In this document: one piece after another, positions 621 through 38,557 of the stretch
Layout: each line of letters opens with the position of its first letter
Numbering within the stretch: position 1 is the first letter of the stretch
Made by a program: the position numbers and the translations under genes
Assembly: GCA_951406725.2 (NCBI GenBank)
Contig: OX597832.1
Location: 23,188,001-23,252,000, forward strand
Length of the DNA stretch: 64,000 nt
Reading direction: 5' to 3'
Source: Octopus vulgaris
Taxonomy: Eukaryota
The notes under the pieces: model-generated
The model's input: the letters and a program-made list of their open reading frames with translations, nothing else
The model's database searches: none
What the model was told of the DNA's origin: nothing

Positions 621-1005
621 CCATGAGATAAGACAGAGAGACAAAATAAACTAGCAATATGGCGCGATATAAACATTTAAGGTGGTTCTTGGAGTCGGGG
701 TCTTGACTGCTATTTCGGCATGGTGGTATCTCTCAGATACCACCATGGCGGCGAGCTGGCAGAAACGTTAGCACGCCGGGCGAAATGCGCAGCCGTATTT
801 CGTCTGCCGTTACGTTGTGAGTTCAAATTCCGCCGAGGTCGACTTTGCCTTTCATCCTTTCGGGGTCGATAAATAAAGTACCAGTTACGCACTGGGGTCG
901 ATGTAATCGACTTAATACCTATGTCTGTCCTTGTTTTTCCTTTCTATGTTTAGCCCCTTGTGGGTAATAAAGAAATAGGTATCTCTCAGATACCCTTATT
1001 TATAG
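621..1005 (+). repeat. Rearranged partial copy of the 1275-1503 module, interrupted by a SINE
   Basis: 621-657 is an approximate reverse complement of ~1376-1412. 660-741 plus 978-1005 match ~1410-1503 in direct orientation. Confidence 0.7.
747..977 (+). mobile_element. SINE family A (tRNA-like head, Nin-like central domain), full length, 17-bp TSD
   Basis: GGCGGCGAGCTGGCAGAAACGTTAGC...GAGTTCAAATTCC (B-box-like)...GCCTTTCATCCTTTCGGGGTCGATAAA...AAAGAAATA. TSD GGTATCTCTCAGATACC at 725-741 and 978-994. Confidence 0.9.
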
Positions 1006-11616: not shown

Positions 11617-11693
<77 letters not shown>

Positions 11694-11735
11694 GGTTAAG
11701 TAATTGAGATTCAAGTGAATTCTAATGAATTCACA

Positions 11736-11844
<109 letters not shown>

Positions 11845-28282: not shown

Positions 28283-28497
28283 GTTCTAGTTATATACATA
28301 TATATACCTTCGTAACGCGGAGTAGATAAAATAGGGGACAACTGATGAGGGGAATGTTCTTTCTGTTGCATGTCCCGTTTCTCTGTTTGTTTGTTTTTCC
28401 CGTTGTTCGAAAATGAGTCCGTTCTATGTTTTTCTATTTTTGTTCTCCTTTCTCAGTTTGTCTACGTTTTTTGATGTCCTGTACTCATATATGCATG

Positions 28498-28589
<92 letters not shown>

Positions 28590-28771
28590 TATGTACATAT
28601 ATGTATGTATATATGCATATATTTATATAGTATTTATTTTATATTATATATATATATATATATTTATACACGCACACACACACATATATGTGTGTGTGTG
28701 TATTGTGTCTGTGTTTCTGTGTTTATGTATTTAATCACACTTGTATATATATATATATATATATATATATA

Positions 28772-28837
28772 CAAAAAGCAATAAAGATTCAAGTTAATTT
28801 AAATGAATTTACTTGAATATGGTACCTAACTTAGATG
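28772..28837 (-). repeat. Inverted 66-bp copy of PLE 29256-29321
   Basis: Reverse complement of CATCTAAGTTAGGTACC...GCTTTTTG. It overlaps the pLTR start by 3 nt (ATG). Confidence 0.9.
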
Positions 28838-29207
28838 GATAAATTTGTCGTCTGTGAGTATGTAATCCCTCCTCATATCTCTGGAAATTCATATGTACAC
28901 TATGGATTAAGTTACCTTCCCTGTGATGCTATTAAAACCTTTTTAAAATTCTGTGATAAGACTGTACACCATCTTTAAAGAACTTTAATGAACTTTGGAA
29001 ATCTGTTTATGTTACTTAATTATCTACATTACTTCATGAGTATAGCCTCAACCACTAGGATGTCTAGAGAACTCACATGTATTTTAGCTGATGAGTACGG
29101 GACACGTTTATATGCTGCAATTTTTGCAACTTTTAATAAAGCCTGTCCTTGTATGAAACGATTGTACTAAAAACCTATCCATTCTTGTTGCTTCTTTCTC
29201 GCTTATA
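28835..29207 (+). repeat. 5' pseudo-LTR (373 bp)
   Basis: Direct repeat of 33485-33857 (offset 4650) with only a few substitutions. The same 60-aa spurious ORF appears in both copies. Confidence 0.95.
29082..29172 (+). ncRNA. Type I hammerhead ribozyme in the 5' pLTR
   Basis: TTTTAG-CTGATGA-long stem II (GTACGGGACA...TGTCCTTGTAT)-GAAAC GATT GTA-CTAAAA. Predicted cut after 29166. Confidence 0.85.
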
Positions 29208-29375
29208 ATCACCCCACATTACTGTATTGTTAAAACCGTATAGTTTGTTTTGGTGCATCTAAGTTAGGTACCATATTCAAGTAAATTCATTTAAATTAAC
29301 TTGAATCTTTATTGCTTTTTGAATATATTCCCATACAGTCTGTATGTTTTTCTGGTACTTAATTTCTCAACAAGA

Positions 29376-32249
29376 ATGGAAAAAGTAAACATTGAGTTCT
29401 CCCCTAAAGACATCCCCTTACATAGTATAGATGAATATAATTGGCTTCTCATTCATAGGATTAACGATTTCATTAGAAGAATCAGGTGGAAAACGTACCA
29501 TTTTGATGTCAAACAGAAGAAGAAACCACAGGAAAAGAATACCGAAAAGAATTTTGGAAGAATTTTTAAAAGTAGAAAAAGTCCACCTCAGAACCCATTC
29601 CTGGAGAACTTTGAGAAAGACTTGCTGAATCTTATAGATGATATTAGCTTCAAGGAACACCCGTTGAGATACAACCCTCACCTTAGACACCTTAGGAACT
29701 TTATTCAGTCAACCAGGTGCAAACATGGAATCCTAGTACCAGCAGATAAAACGGGTAATATGTATAGAGTTGATTACGATCTTTATAGCAAATTAATTAG
29801 GAAGGAACTAAATTCCAAATATAAAATTACGACTAAGAACAATTTGAAAAAAGTAAACCTGGAAATGAAAGAGATCATGGAGAAACTAAATTTAACGGAT
29901 AGAACAGAGCCGCTTAAACCGTGTGAGCCCAGGATCAACCTTAAAGACCACAAAAAGAATTTCTTGGAAAACCCTTCGGTAAGGCTGATCTGTCCAACTA
30001 AGTCGGACATTGGCCGACTTAGTAAATCTATCCTGGATACTGTTCTACCCCAAATAACCCCTCTTCTCCCCTTAAACCTATGGCTAAGTACGGACGAAGT
30101 TCTAAAATGGTTTAACTCTCTAACTAATACTAGTAGTCTGTCCTTTATTCAGTTCGATATTAATAGTTATTACTCTAGTATTTCCCCTATCTTACTCAAT
30201 AAATCACTAATATTTGCCATGAATCGCTCCCTCATATCTAGAGAAGAAATCAATATTGTGCTACTAGCTAGGAAGACATTTATAGAATTTGAAGATAAAT
30301 TATGGACTAGAGCAGATACACCTAATTATTTTGATATACCAATGGGTTCCAGTGATTCGGCTGAGGTAACCAACCTAGTAGGCGCATATCTATTAAAATG
30401 CATAAGCAAGGATATCCCAGAAATACAGGGGGGTCTATATAGGGATGATGCTCTGTTTGTTATCCCTAGTAATAATAAATCTGTTATAGAAAGGATTAGA
30501 AAGAAAATTAATAAGTTCTTTAAGGATTTCAACCTCAGTATAACGTATGAACCGGGCACTAAAATAGTTAACTTCCTAGATATTACGCTAGACCTTAACT
30601 CCAAGCTGCATTACCCATTTAGAAAGGAAGGCGAAATCACGAATTACGTAAATAAATTATCAAATCATCCCCCAAATATAATTGAATCTTTAGTAAGAAA
30701 TATTTCATTAATAATTTCAAAATTATCATCCAATAAGGATATATTTAACTCCCATTCTGAGCATTATAATGCGGCGTTAACTAAGGCTGGATACAACCAA
30801 AAGATTACATTCGTTGATAAGGAGAACTCACGTATTCCTAATAAGGAAGTTATCAGTAATCACGTAAGCAGCAATACAGACCAAGCCCGAAATAAAAGTA
30901 GAATTAAATTAACGGTAAACGCTAATCTAACGTACAGGCCCAACAATTCAAATAGAAGCATTGACCAGAACATAGGTAACTCGGATAATATCGAAGTAGA
31001 TAAACCAAAGATGCACACAAATAAAAATAAAAATAATGGTAATAAATACAATAGCTCCGGTGAGATGAATAGTAATAATTCTACGAACCCTAAATTTAAT
31101 AAAAAAGATATAATATGGCTGAATATTCCTTTCAACTGTGCGATACAATCGGATATACAGAACAAATTCAAAGTAATTCTGGAAAAAAATTTCCCAATCT
31201 CTCATAGATATCATAGAATTATTTCTAGGAAAACAGTTAGGATTTCTTATTCAACCCTCCCAAATATGTCCACTTTAATAGCTAAGATTAATAATAACAA
31301 CATTAAACTAGCCAGGAAAAATAGAAATAAAAATAATAATATCAGCATGAATACCAATAGCAATTATAATAATACTACCAACAATAAAAACAGCAATAGT
31401 AACTATCAAAACATGGGTGAAATTAGTTACCACAGAATGACTAATAACATTAACATTAATAGTAATAATAACAATACCGATATTAATAGAAGTAATAATG
31501 TTAATAATAGAAATAATAGAAATAAGGCTAATGGAGAAAATAAGGAGAATGAAAATATCAGTGATATCTATAACAACAATATGCAGTCGGATAAAAAGAC
31601 TAACAATAATAGTAACATTACCAATAATATAAGAAATCATGGTAGGACTTTAGACCTAAAAGATGAAACAGAAGGATCAATAAATAATAGCAATACTTTA
31701 GATATCAGCACCAACTATAGAAATATTAATAACAATAAGGACAATTATACTCATGATAATCAAAATAATAGGAACCTAAGACATCTACCCAAGAATAATC
31801 CAAAACCTGAAGTTGTTCCTCCTGTGTGTAAGTGTAGAATAAAATCAAAATGCCCGGCACCTGGTCTATGCGGGGAAAATAATGTAATCTATAAATGTAC
31901 CATATCCACGGAGAATAACAAATATTTTTACATTGGATGTACAATTAATTTTCTAGCCAGAGTTAGAAATCACATCTCGTCTTTTAAATTACGTCATAAA
32001 GCTGGTACCACCACACTTTCAAACAAAATCTGGGAACTCAAAAATAATAATAATAATTATAACCTTAATTGGGAAATAGTTAGGAGAGCAATTCCGTATA
32101 AAAATAGCAGGGTTGGTTGCCAACTATGCTCCATGGAGACGTATGAAATTCTAAAGCATAGAAAACATAGAAACTTATTGAATAACCATATCGAACTAGG
32201 TCAAGTTTGTGTCCACGCTAAATTGAAGACTTTAAAATATTTTAAATGA
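29376..32249 (+). CDS. PLE reverse transcriptase + GIY-YIG endonuclease (957 aa from first ATG; frame open from 29301)
   Basis: PADKT, LKDHK..RLICP, motif A FDINSYYSSI, B PMGS, C YRDD, E NFLDITL, Cys linker CKCRIKSKCP..LC, VIY..YIG, R..NH and CQLC. No stops. Confidence 0.95.
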   Translation: MEKVNIEFSPKDIPLHSIDEYNWLLIHRINDFIRRIRWKTYHFDVKQKKKPQEKNTEKNFGRIFKSRKSPPQNPFLENFEKDLLNLIDDISFKEHPLRYNPHLRHLRNFIQSTRCKHGILVPADKTGNMYRVDYDLYSKLIRKELNSKYKITTKNNLKKVNLEMKEIMEKLNLTDRTEPLKPCEPRINLKDHKKNFLENPSVRLICPTKSDIGRLSKSILDTVLPQITPLLPLNLWLSTDEVLKWFNSLTNTSSLSFIQFDINSYYSSISPILLNKSLIFAMNRSLISREEINIVLLARKTFIEFEDKLWTRADTPNYFDIPMGSSDSAEVTNLVGAYLLKCISKDIPEIQGGLYRDDALFVIPSNNKSVIERIRKKINKFFKDFNLSITYEPGTKIVNFLDITLDLNSKLHYPFRKEGEITNYVNKLSNHPPNIIESLVRNISLIISKLSSNKDIFNSHSEHYNAALTKAGYNQKITFVDKENSRIPNKEVISNHVSSNTDQARNKSRIKLTVNANLTYRPNNSNRSIDQNIGNSDNIEVDKPKMHTNKNKNNGNKYNSSGEMNSNNSTNPKFNKKDIIWLNIPFNCAIQSDIQNKFKVILEKNFPISHRYHRIISRKTVRISYSTLPNMSTLIAKINNNNIKLARKNRNKNNNISMNTNSNYNNTTNNKNSNSNYQNMGEISYHRMTNNININSNNNNTDINRSNNVNNRNNRNKANGENKENENISDIYNNNMQSDKKTNNNSNITNNIRNHGRTLDLKDETEGSINNSNTLDISTNYRNINNNKDNYTHDNQNNRNLRHLPKNNPKPEVVPPVCKCRIKSKCPAPGLCGENNVIYKCTISTENNKYFYIGCTINFLARVRNHISSFKLRHKAGTTTLSNKIWELKNNNNNYNLNWEIVRRAIPYKNSRVGCQLCSMETYEILKHRKHRNLLNNHIELGQVCVHAKLKTLKYFK

Positions 32250-33292
32250 TTAGAATATTCGTAACTAGATAGATAGATAGATATAACTTGATTTTTACTA
32301 GTATAGCACTGCTTTAAGTAGATAACTAAGAGTTCTCACACTACAGTTATCTTTTTCCTTATATCTGCATCAGTTTTTTGAGAACAGGGAAATGAATAGT
32401 ACTTATACGCTGCTTAATTGAGGCTTTATTTAATTTCAAACTCATAATTTTAAATTTTTAAATCTTAATTTTAAATCTTAATTTTAATTTTTAATTTTAA
32501 TTCTTAACTTAATCTAATTTAAGTAGCATAACTTTAATAAAATAAAATGAGTTACTAAAGCCCCATAATTCTATTTCAAAATTAAATAAATAAGGCTACT
32601 CCCTCGGTGATAATATGATTATCTTCATTATGATAGACAATTCCCTAACACCTTGTAAATGATCTTCTAAGATTTGACCTGTAGTCCGTCAATGTATGAA
32701 TAATAACGGCAACTCCTTAAGACAGTAAAATGAATAAATTAAATAAATAAATTTTAATGACTTTTTGATAAGATTATACTTAGATTTTCCTAATGTATTT
32801 TCTTTTGATTTTAGCCTTTGACCCCTAAACCCCTAAACCCCTGACCGTGTTATCTCTTTAGATTCTCTTTAAATTCATAGCTGCTTTCGACAGCAATAAA
32901 TTAGCTGTTTTACTGGTCAAAGAATAATATTCTCCTCTAGTTCCTAGATGCCTGTAAATTAAAACCAGACTTGCCGTCTACTAATTCTTCTGTATAACTA
33001 GAACCCTCTTTTTTTCTTTTTCTTTTTTCCCTTCTTTCCCTATTTCTTTCTCTTTTCTTTTTTTCTTTTTCTTCTTCTTATTCTCTTTTTCTTTTTTTCT
33101 TTTTCCTTTTCTCTTCTCTTCTAGCCCCCCCCTTTTGCTCCCTCCCCCTTTATTTTCTCTCTTTCCTTCTCTTTCCTTCCCTTTTCTGTTCTTTGCCTCT
33201 CTAGAAAGCCCTTCAGCCTTTAAAAGTTAAATAGCTACAGTCTCTTGAAAATAGCAGTAATGTGATTAATGTGGCAAATACCTAATCATATA

Positions 33293-33586
33293 GCAAGAAT
33301 TGATACCCACCTCATTGTGTTCAACCATTGATAAATTTATCGCCTGTGAATATGAAATTCCTCTTCATTTCTCTGGAAATTTACATCTACACCATTGGAA
33401 ATTGTGCATCTATACAAAGGATTAATTCACCCTCTCTGTAATGCTAATAAGCAGGAATTGAAACCCACCTCGTTGTGATTAGCAATGGATAAATTTGTCG
33501 TCTGTGAGTATGTAATCCCTCCTCATATCTCTGGAAATTCATATGTACACTATGGATTAAGTCACCTTCTCTGTGATGCTATTAAA
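33293..33586 (+). repeat. Diverged tandem duplication in the PLE 3' UTR
   Basis: GCA(A/G)GAATTGA.ACCCACCTC.TTGTG...CTCTGGAAATT...GGATTAA.TCACC.TCTCTGT.ATGCTA at ~33293 and ~33451. Confidence 0.75.
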
Positions 33587-33851
33587 ACTTTTTTAAAATT
33601 CTGTGATAAGACTGTACATCATCTTTAAAGAACTTTAATGAACTTTGGAAATCTGTTTATGTTACTTAATTATCTACATTACTTCATGAGTATAGCCTCA
33701 ACCACTAGGATGTCTAGAGAACTCACATGTATTTTAGCTGATGAGTACGGGACACGTTTATATGCTGCAATTTTTGCAACTTTTAATAAAGCCTGTCCTT
33801 GTATGAAACGATTGTACTAAAAACCTATCCATTCTTGTTGCTTCTTTCTCG

Positions 33852-33857
<6 letters not shown>
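33485..33857 (+). repeat. 3' pseudo-LTR
   Basis: Direct repeat of 28835-29207, running into (TA)n. Confidence 0.95.
33732..33822 (+). ncRNA. Type I hammerhead ribozyme in the 3' pLTR
   Basis: Identical to 29082-29172. Confidence 0.85.
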
Positions 33858-33912
<55 letters not shown>

Positions 33913-33969
33913 GTGCGACTTAATTTGACCTTAAAATTGTATAGTTTGCTTTCACTTGCGTCTATCTAA

Positions 33970-34016
<47 letters not shown>

Positions 34017-34430
34017 TCTTCAACAAGTGAAAAAAGATACGTATCCAGACTAATGCACACGTATGTACAATGGTCTGCAACAATCCGCTTGAAGCGAAAA
34101 TATCACACATATTCCAAAAAATACCATGGTGGATCCAACAAATTATGCTGCCTCTTCCGTCCGTTTTGACTAATCGACTTTAGCTTGTTCGTCTTAACAT
34201 TCTCTCTGTTTTATATTCCGATATTCCACTCCACTAAATCTTTAGGTCTAAGCATATTTTTGTCTAGAAGCATTGAGTTGCTTTTTCCGTTTGACTTTAT
34301 TTTTTTTACTTTAAAAGCAGTTTTGGATTTTACGCTATCTGTATAGTATTCATAAATACTTACATAGCTTGCTTTGTCTATTTTAGCCTCACTCCCACTC
34401 TCTCATTTTATATGTCTTTGGGGCCGTATG

Positions 34431-34528
<98 letters not shown>

Positions 34529-34731
34529 TGTGTGTGAATAAAGATATAATAATGTTTGTATTCACATACACACACATGTGTATGTATATGTATATGAATA
34601 TGTGTGTTGCAATCTATGTATGATATGTATATGCATATAAGTATACTTGTATATTTATAGACATGTGTGTGTGCGTGCACGTATGTATAAACATATGTAG
34701 ACGTGTCTAACTTTCATTAGACCTGAGTATG

Positions 34732-34769
<38 letters not shown>

Positions 34770-34797
34770 CGTGTGTGTGTATGTATGTGTATGCATG

Positions 34798-34845
<48 letters not shown>

Positions 34846-34966
34846 TATATGTATGTATGTATGTATGTATGTATATATGTATGTATGTATGCCTGTGTAT
34901 GTGTGTAAGAGAGAGAGTGTGTGTGTGTGTATGTATGTAAGGATGATGCATGTATATATATATGTG

Positions 34967-34999
<33 letters not shown>

Positions 35000-35805
35000 G
35001 CCTGTGTACTTGCGTGAGCCTCTGTGTATGTGTGCAAGAGAGAGAGTGTGTGTGCGTGTGTGTTTGTGTTTGTATTTGTGTGTGTGCTCGTTTCTCTGTG
35101 TGTGTGTGTGTGTCTGTGTGCCGTAAGCATCACATACATATCTTGTACATTTTGGGTATTTATTCAAAGTTAATCAGCTAAAATGCTTCACTTCGTTAAA
35201 TCTCACATTATATATATATTCCATATGAATATACATGGGATGAGCATAGGAGAAGAGCCATACGCTTCAAGACAAAGTAGAAGAGAGAGAGAGATAGAAA
35301 GAGAAAAAGAAGACAGAGGAAAAACAGTGGGATTTATTGGACAGAACGAAATATATTGTAACTAAGCCAGATAAAATTTTGTTTGCAGCATCGTTTGAGC
35401 GGGATGGGCAATGTTAATGACCTTTGTGCAGAGCAGCCAAAGTAAAGAAGAGGGGAAGCTACAACTTAAGCGTAAATATCAGGCTGGTTACATGATGAGA
35501 ATGTCTGCCGTTGAGAGTTCACCGTTTAAGCTATCGAAGGGTCAGTTTGCAGCGGTATGTAACGAGACGATGGGTGGTGAGTAATTTAAAAGAAAAAGGA
35601 AAAGTAAAAATGAAAAATGAATTTATAGATGATAAAGTAAAAAAACTTGTGTATAAGGAATAAAAAAAAAGAAAGAGTTTATAAGTGGGAAGCAACAAGG
35701 TGAGAAAGTGGTTTGGAAATATGAAATTTGAAACAAATAAGAGCTGAAAGAATATAAGGCTGAAACGGGGATGGATAGAAAGAGTGTTTGTGAGAAATGA
35801 GTGTT

Positions 35806-35811
35806 AAGAAA

Positions 35812-35888
<77 letters not shown>

Positions 35889-36024
35889 GAAGGAAGAAAA
35901 GCAAAGAAAGAAAGAAAGAAAATAAAAAAAGAAAGAAAAAGGGAAAGTAAGAAAGACAGAAATAAATAAATAAAGAAAGAAAGAATGAAAGAATGAATGA
36001 ATGAATGAATGAATGAATGAATGA

Positions 36025-37424: not shown

Positions 37425-37497
<73 letters not shown>

Positions 37498-37504
37498 GTA
37501 TATA

Positions 37505-38090
37505 TGAATGAATGAATGAATGAATGTTCGTCCTTCGGTTCAAAGATGACCAACTGACATCATCTGATAGAACTGCCGCCATGAGACCTGAGGTGGCTGG
37601 TGAGGCCAATCCGGGCAAGGAAGCCCCTCCCACAGGTGGGGCAGAAGTGGGTAGGGGCCGTGCTACTGGTGCAGGCGGCTCTGGCTTTACGCATCTGACG
37701 TTTCTGCTCCGCTGACCGAATCCGTCCCTCCTCGGCTGTCCCTGCTCCCACGGTGATTGCGCTGCGCCAGGATGAGCGGTTGGCAGCAAGTGTCTCCCAG
37801 GTCTCTGTTCCGATGGAGAAGTCTTTGAGAGAGACCTTGAGACTATCCTTGTAGCGCTTCTTCTGCCTCCGACTTTGCGCCTGCCCTGGCCGAGTTCACC
37901 GTAGAAGAGCTGTTTTGGGATGCGAGTGTCGGACATGCGGGAGACGTGGCCCGCCCATCTCAGCTGGGCCTTGCGCATGATTGTGATGGTGCTAGGGAGA
38001 TCTGCTTGCTTCAGAACTTCCGTGTCTGGGACTTTGTCCTGCCAGCGGATGTGAAGGGGGTTCCGAAGACACCTGAGATGGAAGTGGTTT
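37505..38090 (-). pseudogene. RTE (BovB-like) LINE 3' fragment
   Basis: QLRWAGHVSRMSDTRIPKQLFYGEL and CPTCGRGFLARIGLTSHLRSH. (ATTC)n tail, one frameshift near 37860, GC-rich relative to flanks. Confidence 0.9.
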
Positions 38091-38105
38091 ATATGGAAGA
38101 TGGAA

Positions 38106-38170
<65 letters not shown>

Positions 38171-38557
38171 AATATATATAAGATATTACTTTATATAATT
38201 AAGGGCTCAGTAAAATAATTTACTTTACAACATACTGAAAGTTTTAGAAATAGCAGCCAAAACAATTTTTTCTTTAGCCATTTCTACTACTTTAAGAAGA
38301 ATCTCCCTGAAAGTGCTTACTCAAAAATATTAATATATATATATATGTCTTTCTCTTTTTTTCTCTCTCCTTCTGTCTCCGTCTTTCTCTCTGTCTGTCT
38401 GTCTCTCCCTCTCTATCTCCTTCTCCTCTCTCTCTCTCTCTCTCTCTATCTATCTCTCTCCTCTTTATCTACATATTTAGTTCGTTAAGATAAAGACGGC
38501 ATTAAGGCAAACGCAAATGTAAATTAAACTTACTGACGTGTCTGTAAGGACTTGTGC

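Follow-up and report, generated by a model that had tools for sequence, protein, structure and literature searches.

Where on its RNA does a Penelope-like retrotransposon (PLE) begin to be copied into the genome, and what does its hammerhead ribozyme contribute? The choice of start site by the reverse transcriptase (RT) and the role of the hammerhead are named as open questions in PMC8557442 and PMC11167929. A copy that bears on both lies in a 64,000-nucleotide (nt) stretch of Octopus vulgaris DNA, hereafter the window (assembly GCA_951406725.2, contig OX597832.1, positions 23,188,001 to 23,252,000, forward strand), in whose own numbering all positions are given. The region 28772-33857 is a full-length, open-frame PLE of the Hydra clade, and it belongs to a multi-copy family. 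Copies of this (TA)n-inserting family end at two fixed sites, which likely serve for internal priming and owe their position to RNA hairpins.

Copies of the family run into (TA)n at two sites

The initial annotation described an uninterrupted RT-GIY-YIG open reading frame (ORF), near-identical direct repeats, a hammerhead in each repeat and (TA)n on both flanks, and all of this was borne out. The ORF runs for 957 amino acids (aa) with zero internal stops. The 373-bp repeats, 28835-29207 and 33485-33857, differ at 28913, 28920, 28939 and 28969 only, and their offset sets the unit length at 4650 bp; a hammerhead core with stems I-III was located in both. The hallmarks of a PLE are present: a partial tandem repeat or pseudo-long terminal repeat (pLTR), an inverted 5' copy and a tail. 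The parts of the element are as follows.

28744..28771, no strand: (TA)n left flank, target (sequence scan)
28772..28837, minus strand: 3' end of a second, short copy in inverted orientation; equals 29256-29328 reverse-complemented
28835..29207, plus strand: 5' pLTR, a 5'-truncated upstream copy of 373 bp (self-comparison)
29082..29172, plus strand: hammerhead motif of type I, its stem II long and its stem III self-complementary; cleavage predicted after 29166
29208..29328, plus strand: "tail" of 121 nt that separates the short insertion end (29207) from the long one (29328) (loose ends joined to (TA)n)
29210..29255, plus strand: predicted bulged hairpin with a CACC/GGUG outer stem, possibly a diverged hairpin 1 (fold prediction)
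29332..29346, plus strand: predicted small hairpin, possibly a diverged hairpin 2 (weak fold prediction, z -0.6)
29180..29378, plus strand: predicted 11-bp long-range stem, 29180-29190 with 29368-29378, hiding the start codon (fold prediction)
29376..32249, plus strand: single ORF, 957 aa (stop-to-stop frame 29295-32249, Met at 29376)
32250..33484, plus strand: long 3' untranslated region (sequence analysis)
33485..33857, plus strand: 3' pLTR with the second hammerhead, ending at the short site (predicted cut after 33816)
33854..33911, no strand: (TA)n right flank, its first TATA common to the element end (sequence scan)

The window has 121 runs of (TA)6 or longer, which cover 5.5% of its length; chance falls far short of explaining TA on both flanks, though the host is TA-rich. 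The same targeting was seen in other copies. We compared the family in contigs from 4 of 24 listed public runs (labelled X1, X3, X6 and X18), and among the matches listed, loose ends run into (TA)n at 29207 in at least 20 contigs of X1 and at least 2 of X6, and at 29328 in at least 35 contigs of X1, at least 21 of X3 and at least 1 of X18. Measured from the predicted cut, these two ends, short and long, lie 41 and 162 nt downstream, and neither coincides with the cut; they are 121 nt apart. Both sit on TA-like words.

The window copy carries one end on each side: its right side has the short end and its left side the long end in inverted orientation. The left tip, itself 66 nt, matches 29256-29328 over 73 nt (98.6% identity, TA overlap included). 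It runs from the long start site on the outside to the base of predicted hairpin 1 (29255) on the inside, and it meets the pLTR at a 3-nt ATG overlap (28835-28837). In related loci, too, the ends form two groups, one about 30-70 and one about 100-120 nt beyond the cut. One of these loci, L016, has the same layout as the window copy, with TA, an inverted tip running from the long site back into hairpin 1, and then the pLTR; the tip stops inside hairpin 1 in L016 and at its base in the window.

Elsewhere in the window, about 80 nt at 11665-11742 resemble the long, TA-joined end of the family at 85% identity; this is probably a short insertion of greater age. Two Hydra copies in related loci (L048:973-1020 and L008:2994-3055) have their 5' boundary at a start site, directly after (TA)n. 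These copies are almost exactly one unit long, which either TA microhomology or a stop after one lap could explain.

A twin bulged hairpin adjoins the ends in related elements

We surveyed 78 related loci (252,639 bases), which share ancestry and are not independent. Downstream of the hammerhead they carry a hairpin of the form GCUC-Y...R-UY-GAGC-ACU, which has a 2-nt pyrimidine bulge on one side, covariation in its inner stem and a nearly invariant GCUC/GAGC outer stem, and which typically occurs twice between hammerhead and ATG. Matches numbered 89 in sense and 4 in antisense, with 0 in 41 upstream control windows. Among 46 hammerheads followed by at least 200 nt, 17 had two or more matches, 17 had one and 12 had none; many of the hammerheads that lack the hairpin belong to 3' repeats that end ahead of the motif, or are followed by variants.

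The first inner pair, which was absent from the search pattern, is Watson-Crick in 72/72 distinct inner sequences when the bulge is set at 2 nt (C-G in 48, T-A in 24), as against 0, 0, 8 and 19 of 72 at bulges of 0, 1, 3 and 4 nt. In 100 distinct matches aligned to a clade model built from 11 same-length hairpins, 98.4% of paired cells were complementary versus 82.8% after shuffling, figures inflated by kinship and by an alignment that leans to the model. By eye, the hairpin is also present in published consensus sequences: Hydra-1_Ajap (two copies), Hydra-2_Amil, Hydra-2_Ajap and Hydra-1_Crog (a GCCC/GGGC variant). No description of a twin hairpin was found in the literature searched, which did not cover subscription journals or Supplementary Fig. 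S2 of PMC11167929; that figure gives the RNA fold at the start sites of the anole element and may include a similar hairpin.

The motif often lies close to the insertion ends. Of 19 informative ends, picked by hand among these related loci, 12 fall 0-6 nt ahead of it, compared with 7.2% of spacer positions. In the relatives, the conserved hairpin likely directs the RT to its start.

The spacer of the window copy is strongly structured (z about -6), and its predicted hairpins begin 3 nt past the short end and 4 nt past the long end. Pairing of the post-hammerhead segment with the start-codon region was only weakly above permutation in 16 relatives (mean 5.75 versus 5.02 nt), and we do not claim the long-range spacer pairing as a conserved feature.

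The hammerhead is not of the minimal type

Each pLTR hammerhead has a CUGAUGA core, a 6-bp stem I and the stem III ACGAUUGU, with predicted cuts after GUA at 29166 and 33816, 4650 nt apart. A type I hammerhead core near the 3' end, seen here in the sequence and its predicted stems, is a trait of the Hydra clade. The minimal PLE hammerhead has a short stem II (7-8 bp or less) and no stem III (PMC4209133). The initial annotation had called the motif minimal, and this must be corrected because the stem II span is 60 nt, versus 10-25 nt in 59 hammerheads from 48 related loci; a stem III is present as well. That stem has 2 bp and a self-complementary loop (stem III duplex, -5.8 kcal/mol), and a fully paired variant, ACAAUUGU, occurs in one loose-end contig of run X6. 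A self-complementary stem III would suit pairing between two hammerheads of one transcript.

None of the 65 Rfam matches with E<=1 in the region 27000-36000 was a hammerhead, and Rfam identified no family in the window element nor in 5 of the 78 related loci. Sense-strand hammerheads were found in 48 of those 78 loci (59 in all) and an antisense one in 1, with a few coming from neighbouring elements. The window element shows that Hydra hammerheads can escape Rfam and short-stem descriptors.

The protein motifs point to the Hydra clade

The reverse transcriptases of PLEs are the closest relatives of telomerase. The ORF product, P0001, is organised as follows.

Within the 957-aa ORF, plus strand: N-terminal region, telomerase-like RT, thumb, CxCx5C linker and C-terminal GIY-YIG endonuclease (motifs, folds)
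About aa 487-570 and 665-813, plus strand: two Asn-rich disordered inserts (AlphaFold model)

The RT has YRDD at aa 355-358. AlphaFold modelled the RT and C-terminal parts with confidence and left aa 487-570 and 665-813 disordered. The best Foldseek match of the RT model was telomerase TERT (3du5, E 7e-9). The C-terminal domain, folded alone, aligned with I-TevI (Z 10.3, rmsd 2.4, 90 aligned residues) and next with other GIY-YIG nucleases; the Pfam GIY-YIG profile scored E 0.002 on this part, short of its curated cut-off. Nothing useful came from running Pfam over the full-length protein or from comparing its sequence with those of solved structures. On these models, a telomerase-like RT and a GIY-YIG endonuclease in one ORF make this a Penelope-like element.

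Membership of the Hydra clade, proposed in the initial annotation, was supported by the motifs. The clade is defined by RWK, DKT, a CxCX5C linker, loss of CCHH, a nuclease with CxxC and CxH, a hammerhead and (TA)n targets (PMC8557442). P0001 has RIRWK (W38), DKG modified to DKT (PADKT, D124-K125) and a linker (C818, C820, C826) that is invariant across 40 sequences. Its endonuclease has C915xxC918 and C945xH947 around the conserved E921 and N936, no CCHH and, unlike Neptune-like ORFs in related loci, no CxxC before YIG. The clade is further marked by the absence of an N-terminal CxC and of an IFD and by a GxKF/Y that is not conserved; the RT columns of P0001 contain no insertion relative to homologues. 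The (TA)n insertion holds for both flanks and for other copies in the public runs. The descriptive trait "generally under 3 kb" does not apply to a unit of 4650 bp.

Over the RT core, P0001 scored more than 100 bits against 76 ORFs of the related loci and E 0.019 and 2.4 against two Neptune-like ORFs from the same loci. A quick tree of 36 rows, built without labelled references, nested P0001 among Hydra-like homologues, grouped with P0002, P0136, P0148, P0083 and P0092 (SH-aLRT 99), and the unnamed homologues in it match published Hydra proteins by eye. We rejected Neptune or Nematis membership, as the CX2-5CxxC linker and endonuclease CCHH are not present in P0001, and Naiad or Chlamys membership, as their endonuclease is N-terminal and the GIY-YIG domain of P0001 is C-terminal.

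Homologues of P0001 are 29-44% identical and mostly about 700 aa long. Its linkers measure 150 and 239 residues versus medians of 68.5 and 76 (in the 54/202 collected proteins with all anchors). The position of the Asn-rich inserts is not unique, as P0073, P0075 and P0083 carry low-complexity inserts at the same linkers. No relative was found in viral contigs. The only named homologues are two Octopus sinensis gene models with pieces of a related element, 70% identical over aa 1-202 and identical at 104/120 residues over aa 323-442. These models, P0037 and P0053, are named ankyrin-repeat protein and Ser/Thr kinase; the names are likely mis-annotations of Hydra-element pieces, with an exonised piece as the alternative.

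The family looks young, and the window copy may be impaired

The two large runs yielded 6267 and 3334 family contigs, of which 2041 and 1172 are at least 99% alike. Summed contig depth, which is not equal to copy number, climbs steeply toward the 3' end of the element. Read from the contigs, this is the pattern of a multi-copy, 5'-truncated family. Among the best 40 of 207 listed rows there were 36 ORF differences; 18/23 up to aa 446 and 4/13 beyond it are synonymous, where 27% is expected. By this measure the RT is under selection, and the C-terminal part, mostly inserts, looks near neutral in a small sample.

The claim of recent activity fits the family, with its thousands of near-identical contigs and mostly synonymous RT differences, better than it fits the window copy. 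This copy has Ile446 where Arg is found in 39/39 aligned homologues, in the octopus relative P0053 and in more than 99% of the depth in X1 and X3. Because of this rare Ile at a near-invariant RT position, the window copy is possibly impaired, although the family looks young.

The four pLTR differences, all C/T, are private to the 5' copy and absent from both the 3' copy and a same-family fragment at 62 kb. All four fall inside 57 bp, a span with P about 0.011. We rejected dating by pLTR divergence because all four are clustered in one copy and so do not form a clean clock.

A 2026 annotation of O. vulgaris lists 336 recently active Penelope-like insertions in 31 families (PMC13282606); the words Hydra and hammerhead do not occur in the main text of that paper.

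A model of insertion and its alternatives

The layout of the window copy would follow from a short series of events. The GIY-YIG domain would nick both strands of a (TA)n run, and each DNA 3' end would pair with the RNA at a UAUA-like word. These words would lie in the spacer that separates hammerhead from ATG, each immediately 5' of a hairpin bound by protein. Hairpin-adjacent priming of this kind is likely for the clade; that the different hairpins of the window do the same job we put at even chances. An RT primed at the short site would make the long arm: it would cross from the spacer into the 3' end of the unit, copy all 4650 nt and go on for a further 373 nt, thereby creating the pLTR. 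An RT primed at the long site would copy about 70 nt and stop at hairpin 1, leaving the inverted tip, and the arms would be joined through the 3-nt overlap by microhomology.

What template would permit the long arm? The hairpin, being 3' of the start, is not copied into that end, and hairpin 2 is never in the tail, so a full-length daughter of the window copy, or any other full-length daughter that has a long end, needs a template with the spacer after the ORF. Such a spacer could come from a circle or an end-to-end join at the cuts, from a jump between pLTRs, or from full tandem arrays. We prefer the circle or end-join because the only spacer in the window copy lies upstream of the ORF. The initial annotation had proposed that cleavage would release a 4650-nt RNA able to circularise; such a circle is plausible, and the chance that the template arises at the hammerhead cuts as a circular or end-joined RNA falls only slightly short of even. 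The most complete version holds that two hairpins each load one RT beside a TA-pairing word, that both ends of the (TA)n break prime on one hammerhead-made circle, one RT going beyond a full lap and the other halting at hairpin 1, and that in the octopus family the protein linkers, the ribozyme and both hairpins were rebuilt with the two start sites kept. Taken as a whole it is doubtful. If true, this two-hairpin circle mechanism would account at once for the hammerhead, the pLTR, the inverted tip and the tail.

The same element and start sites could instead be served by an uncut linear RNA, with the RT jumping between near-identical pLTRs or reading full tandem arrays and the hammerhead acting later or riding as a passenger. 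We give this a substantial probability, somewhat below one half. Hammerhead mutants of an anole PLE inserted unchanged in vitro and no RNA reads ended at the cut (PMC11167929), PLE hammerheads cleave poorly in vitro (PMC4209133), and the listed insertion ends of the octopus family lie away from its predicted cut. One related locus, L015, contains two full tandem units, which may be an assembly effect. On the other side, the anole assay used short RNAs, and full-length copying was outside its test (PMC11167929); the strand bias of the hammerheads (sense in 48/78 loci, antisense in 1) and a self-complementary stem III that would suit pairing within one transcript also speak against an uncut template.

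Two further explanations concern the ends themselves. They might be set in DNA, the endonuclease resolving an intermediate at a cruciform or recognition site formed by the GCTC/GAGC inverted repeat, as was earlier proposed for the PLE tail: Craig et al. attribute the tail to endonuclease-mediated resolution (PMC8557442), the D. virilis nuclease requires the tail for recognition (cited in PMC11167929), and the outer 4 bp are nearly invariant. Yet the motif is asymmetric, with its one-sided 2-nt pyrimidine bulge and covarying inner stem, it is biased 89 to 4 by strand, it lies outside the copied end, and the anole tail ends coincide with RT start sites (PMC11167929); we consider resolution in DNA improbable. 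TA micro-pairing might also suffice by itself, any UAUA-like word priming and the hairpins serving control of transcription or translation. Here 12/19 ends finish on a TA-like word, the window element has two sharp ends without the consensus hairpin, and its spacer stem hides the ATG. However, TA-like words are common in AT-rich elements, yet the TA-joined ends among the matches listed occur at two places only, and the ends of relatives lie 0-6 nt ahead of the motif far above background. Micro-pairing as sole determinant therefore seems to us a poor candidate, no better than resolution in DNA.

Several points weigh against priming at hairpin-placed sites on a hammerhead-made template in an intact element. 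Seven of the 19 ends do not follow the 0-6 nt rule (one lies at 12 nt, two have variant hairpins by eye and four have none), and the set as a whole is weakened by being hand-chosen from related, hence non-independent, loci. As the outer stem hardly varies, it could be a DNA sequence signal. The clade hairpin model found no match in window 29208-29375, so that the link between end and hairpin in the window comes from folding and position. Only L016 and probably L030 among 8 inverted segments in relatives begin near a start site, and 6/8 come from within the ORF. The four clustered 5'-pLTR differences are not predicted by a second lap round one circle, and could have arisen by switching to another template; in the anole system hammerhead cleavage was dispensable in vitro (PMC11167929). 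The tree bearing on the Hydra placement came from a quick method and had no labelled reference sequences, and the reading of the copy as intact is weakened by its Ile446, where Arg is nearly invariant.

As a candidate cis signal, the twin bulged hairpin is both short and conserved, and a single purified protein with an RNA of 200 nt would suffice to test it. What this analysis adds is the map of two ends together with a clade-wide hairpin, which makes the start-site question testable.

Other features and neighbouring elements

The 3' untranslated region includes a pyrimidine tract (33011-33120), and the 3' region holds a diverged tandem duplication of approximately 158 bp (33288-33399 and 33447-33556, 81%). 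The duplication, 33288-33556, overlaps the start of the 3' pLTR, and the 5' pLTR begins within its second unit.

At 62024-62992 lies a foldback fragment of the same family, its two arms about 99% alike around a 60-bp palindrome in which element positions 32902-32932 are joined to 33225 onward. The left arm stops within the hammerhead core and the right arm runs into an assembly gap. A non-LTR retrotransposon occupies 57365-61308, with two overlapping frames (537 and 801 aa; RVT_1 E 7e-28), a C-terminal restriction-like nuclease motif and then (AAT)n; it resembles the Dong/R4 type. A short decayed LINE-like fragment with a WAGHV-type C-terminal block lies between TA runs at 37448-38185 on the minus strand. 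In two related loci, Neptune-like PLE ORFs stand directly upstream of Hydra copies (L008:27-2387 and L056:182-2683); in L008, the Hydra copy begins at its second hairpin, after the (TA)n that ends the Neptune-like element.

Comparison with known systems

The element shares with the published Hydra clade RWK, DKT, CxCx5C, CxxC with CxH, the lack of CCHH, a C-terminal GIY-YIG domain, a hammerhead near the 3' end and (TA)n targets (PMC8557442), as well as, by eye, the same RT blocks. A Hydra element in an octopus is not new as such: Hydra-1_Obim, 2507 bp, from Octopus bimaculoides, is already published (PMC8557442). The window element is of another family, because the hammerhead and protein of Hydra-1_Obim differ. 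It is also larger, with a unit of 4650 bp versus 2.1-2.7 kb in published complete Hydra families (File S1, PMC8557442) and, by way of its two Asn-rich inserts, an ORF of 957 versus about 700 aa, followed by a 1.6-kb 3' region; thus, Hydra families reach nearly twice their published length. Stem II spans 60 nt versus loops of 10 nt or less in published Hydra hammerheads, and the tail is 121 nt versus the 30-40 bp given for PLEs (PMC8557442).

Neptune PLEs resemble the element in their C-terminal GIY-YIG domain, Cys linker and microsatellite targets, and differ in having CX2-5CxxC and CCHH; the two Neptune-like ORFs of the related loci barely align to P0001. Non-LTR retrozymes also have type I hammerheads with a self-complementary stem III and direct repeats (PMC4209133; bioRxiv 10.64898/2026.07.22.740005). 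They are non-coding tandem units, in contrast to the autonomous window element with its non-minimal hammerhead. A circle model for PLEs was already proposed by Cervera and de la Pena in 2014 (PMC4209133).

Another parallel is PAc, a Poseidon element of the green anole (Frangieh et al. 2024, PMC11167929). In vitro work on it demonstrated that the RT starts at two internal sites, that both strands are extended and that the tail forms. As is likely in the octopus family, two internal RT starts lie past the hammerhead with the tail between them, and targets are AT-rich. PAc belongs to the Penelope/Poseidon clade, and its starts, described as non-homologous to the target, lie inside the ORF in an AC-rich stem-loop (PMC11167929). 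In the window family, the putative starts lie upstream of the ATG, 121 nt apart, on TA-like words that match the target.

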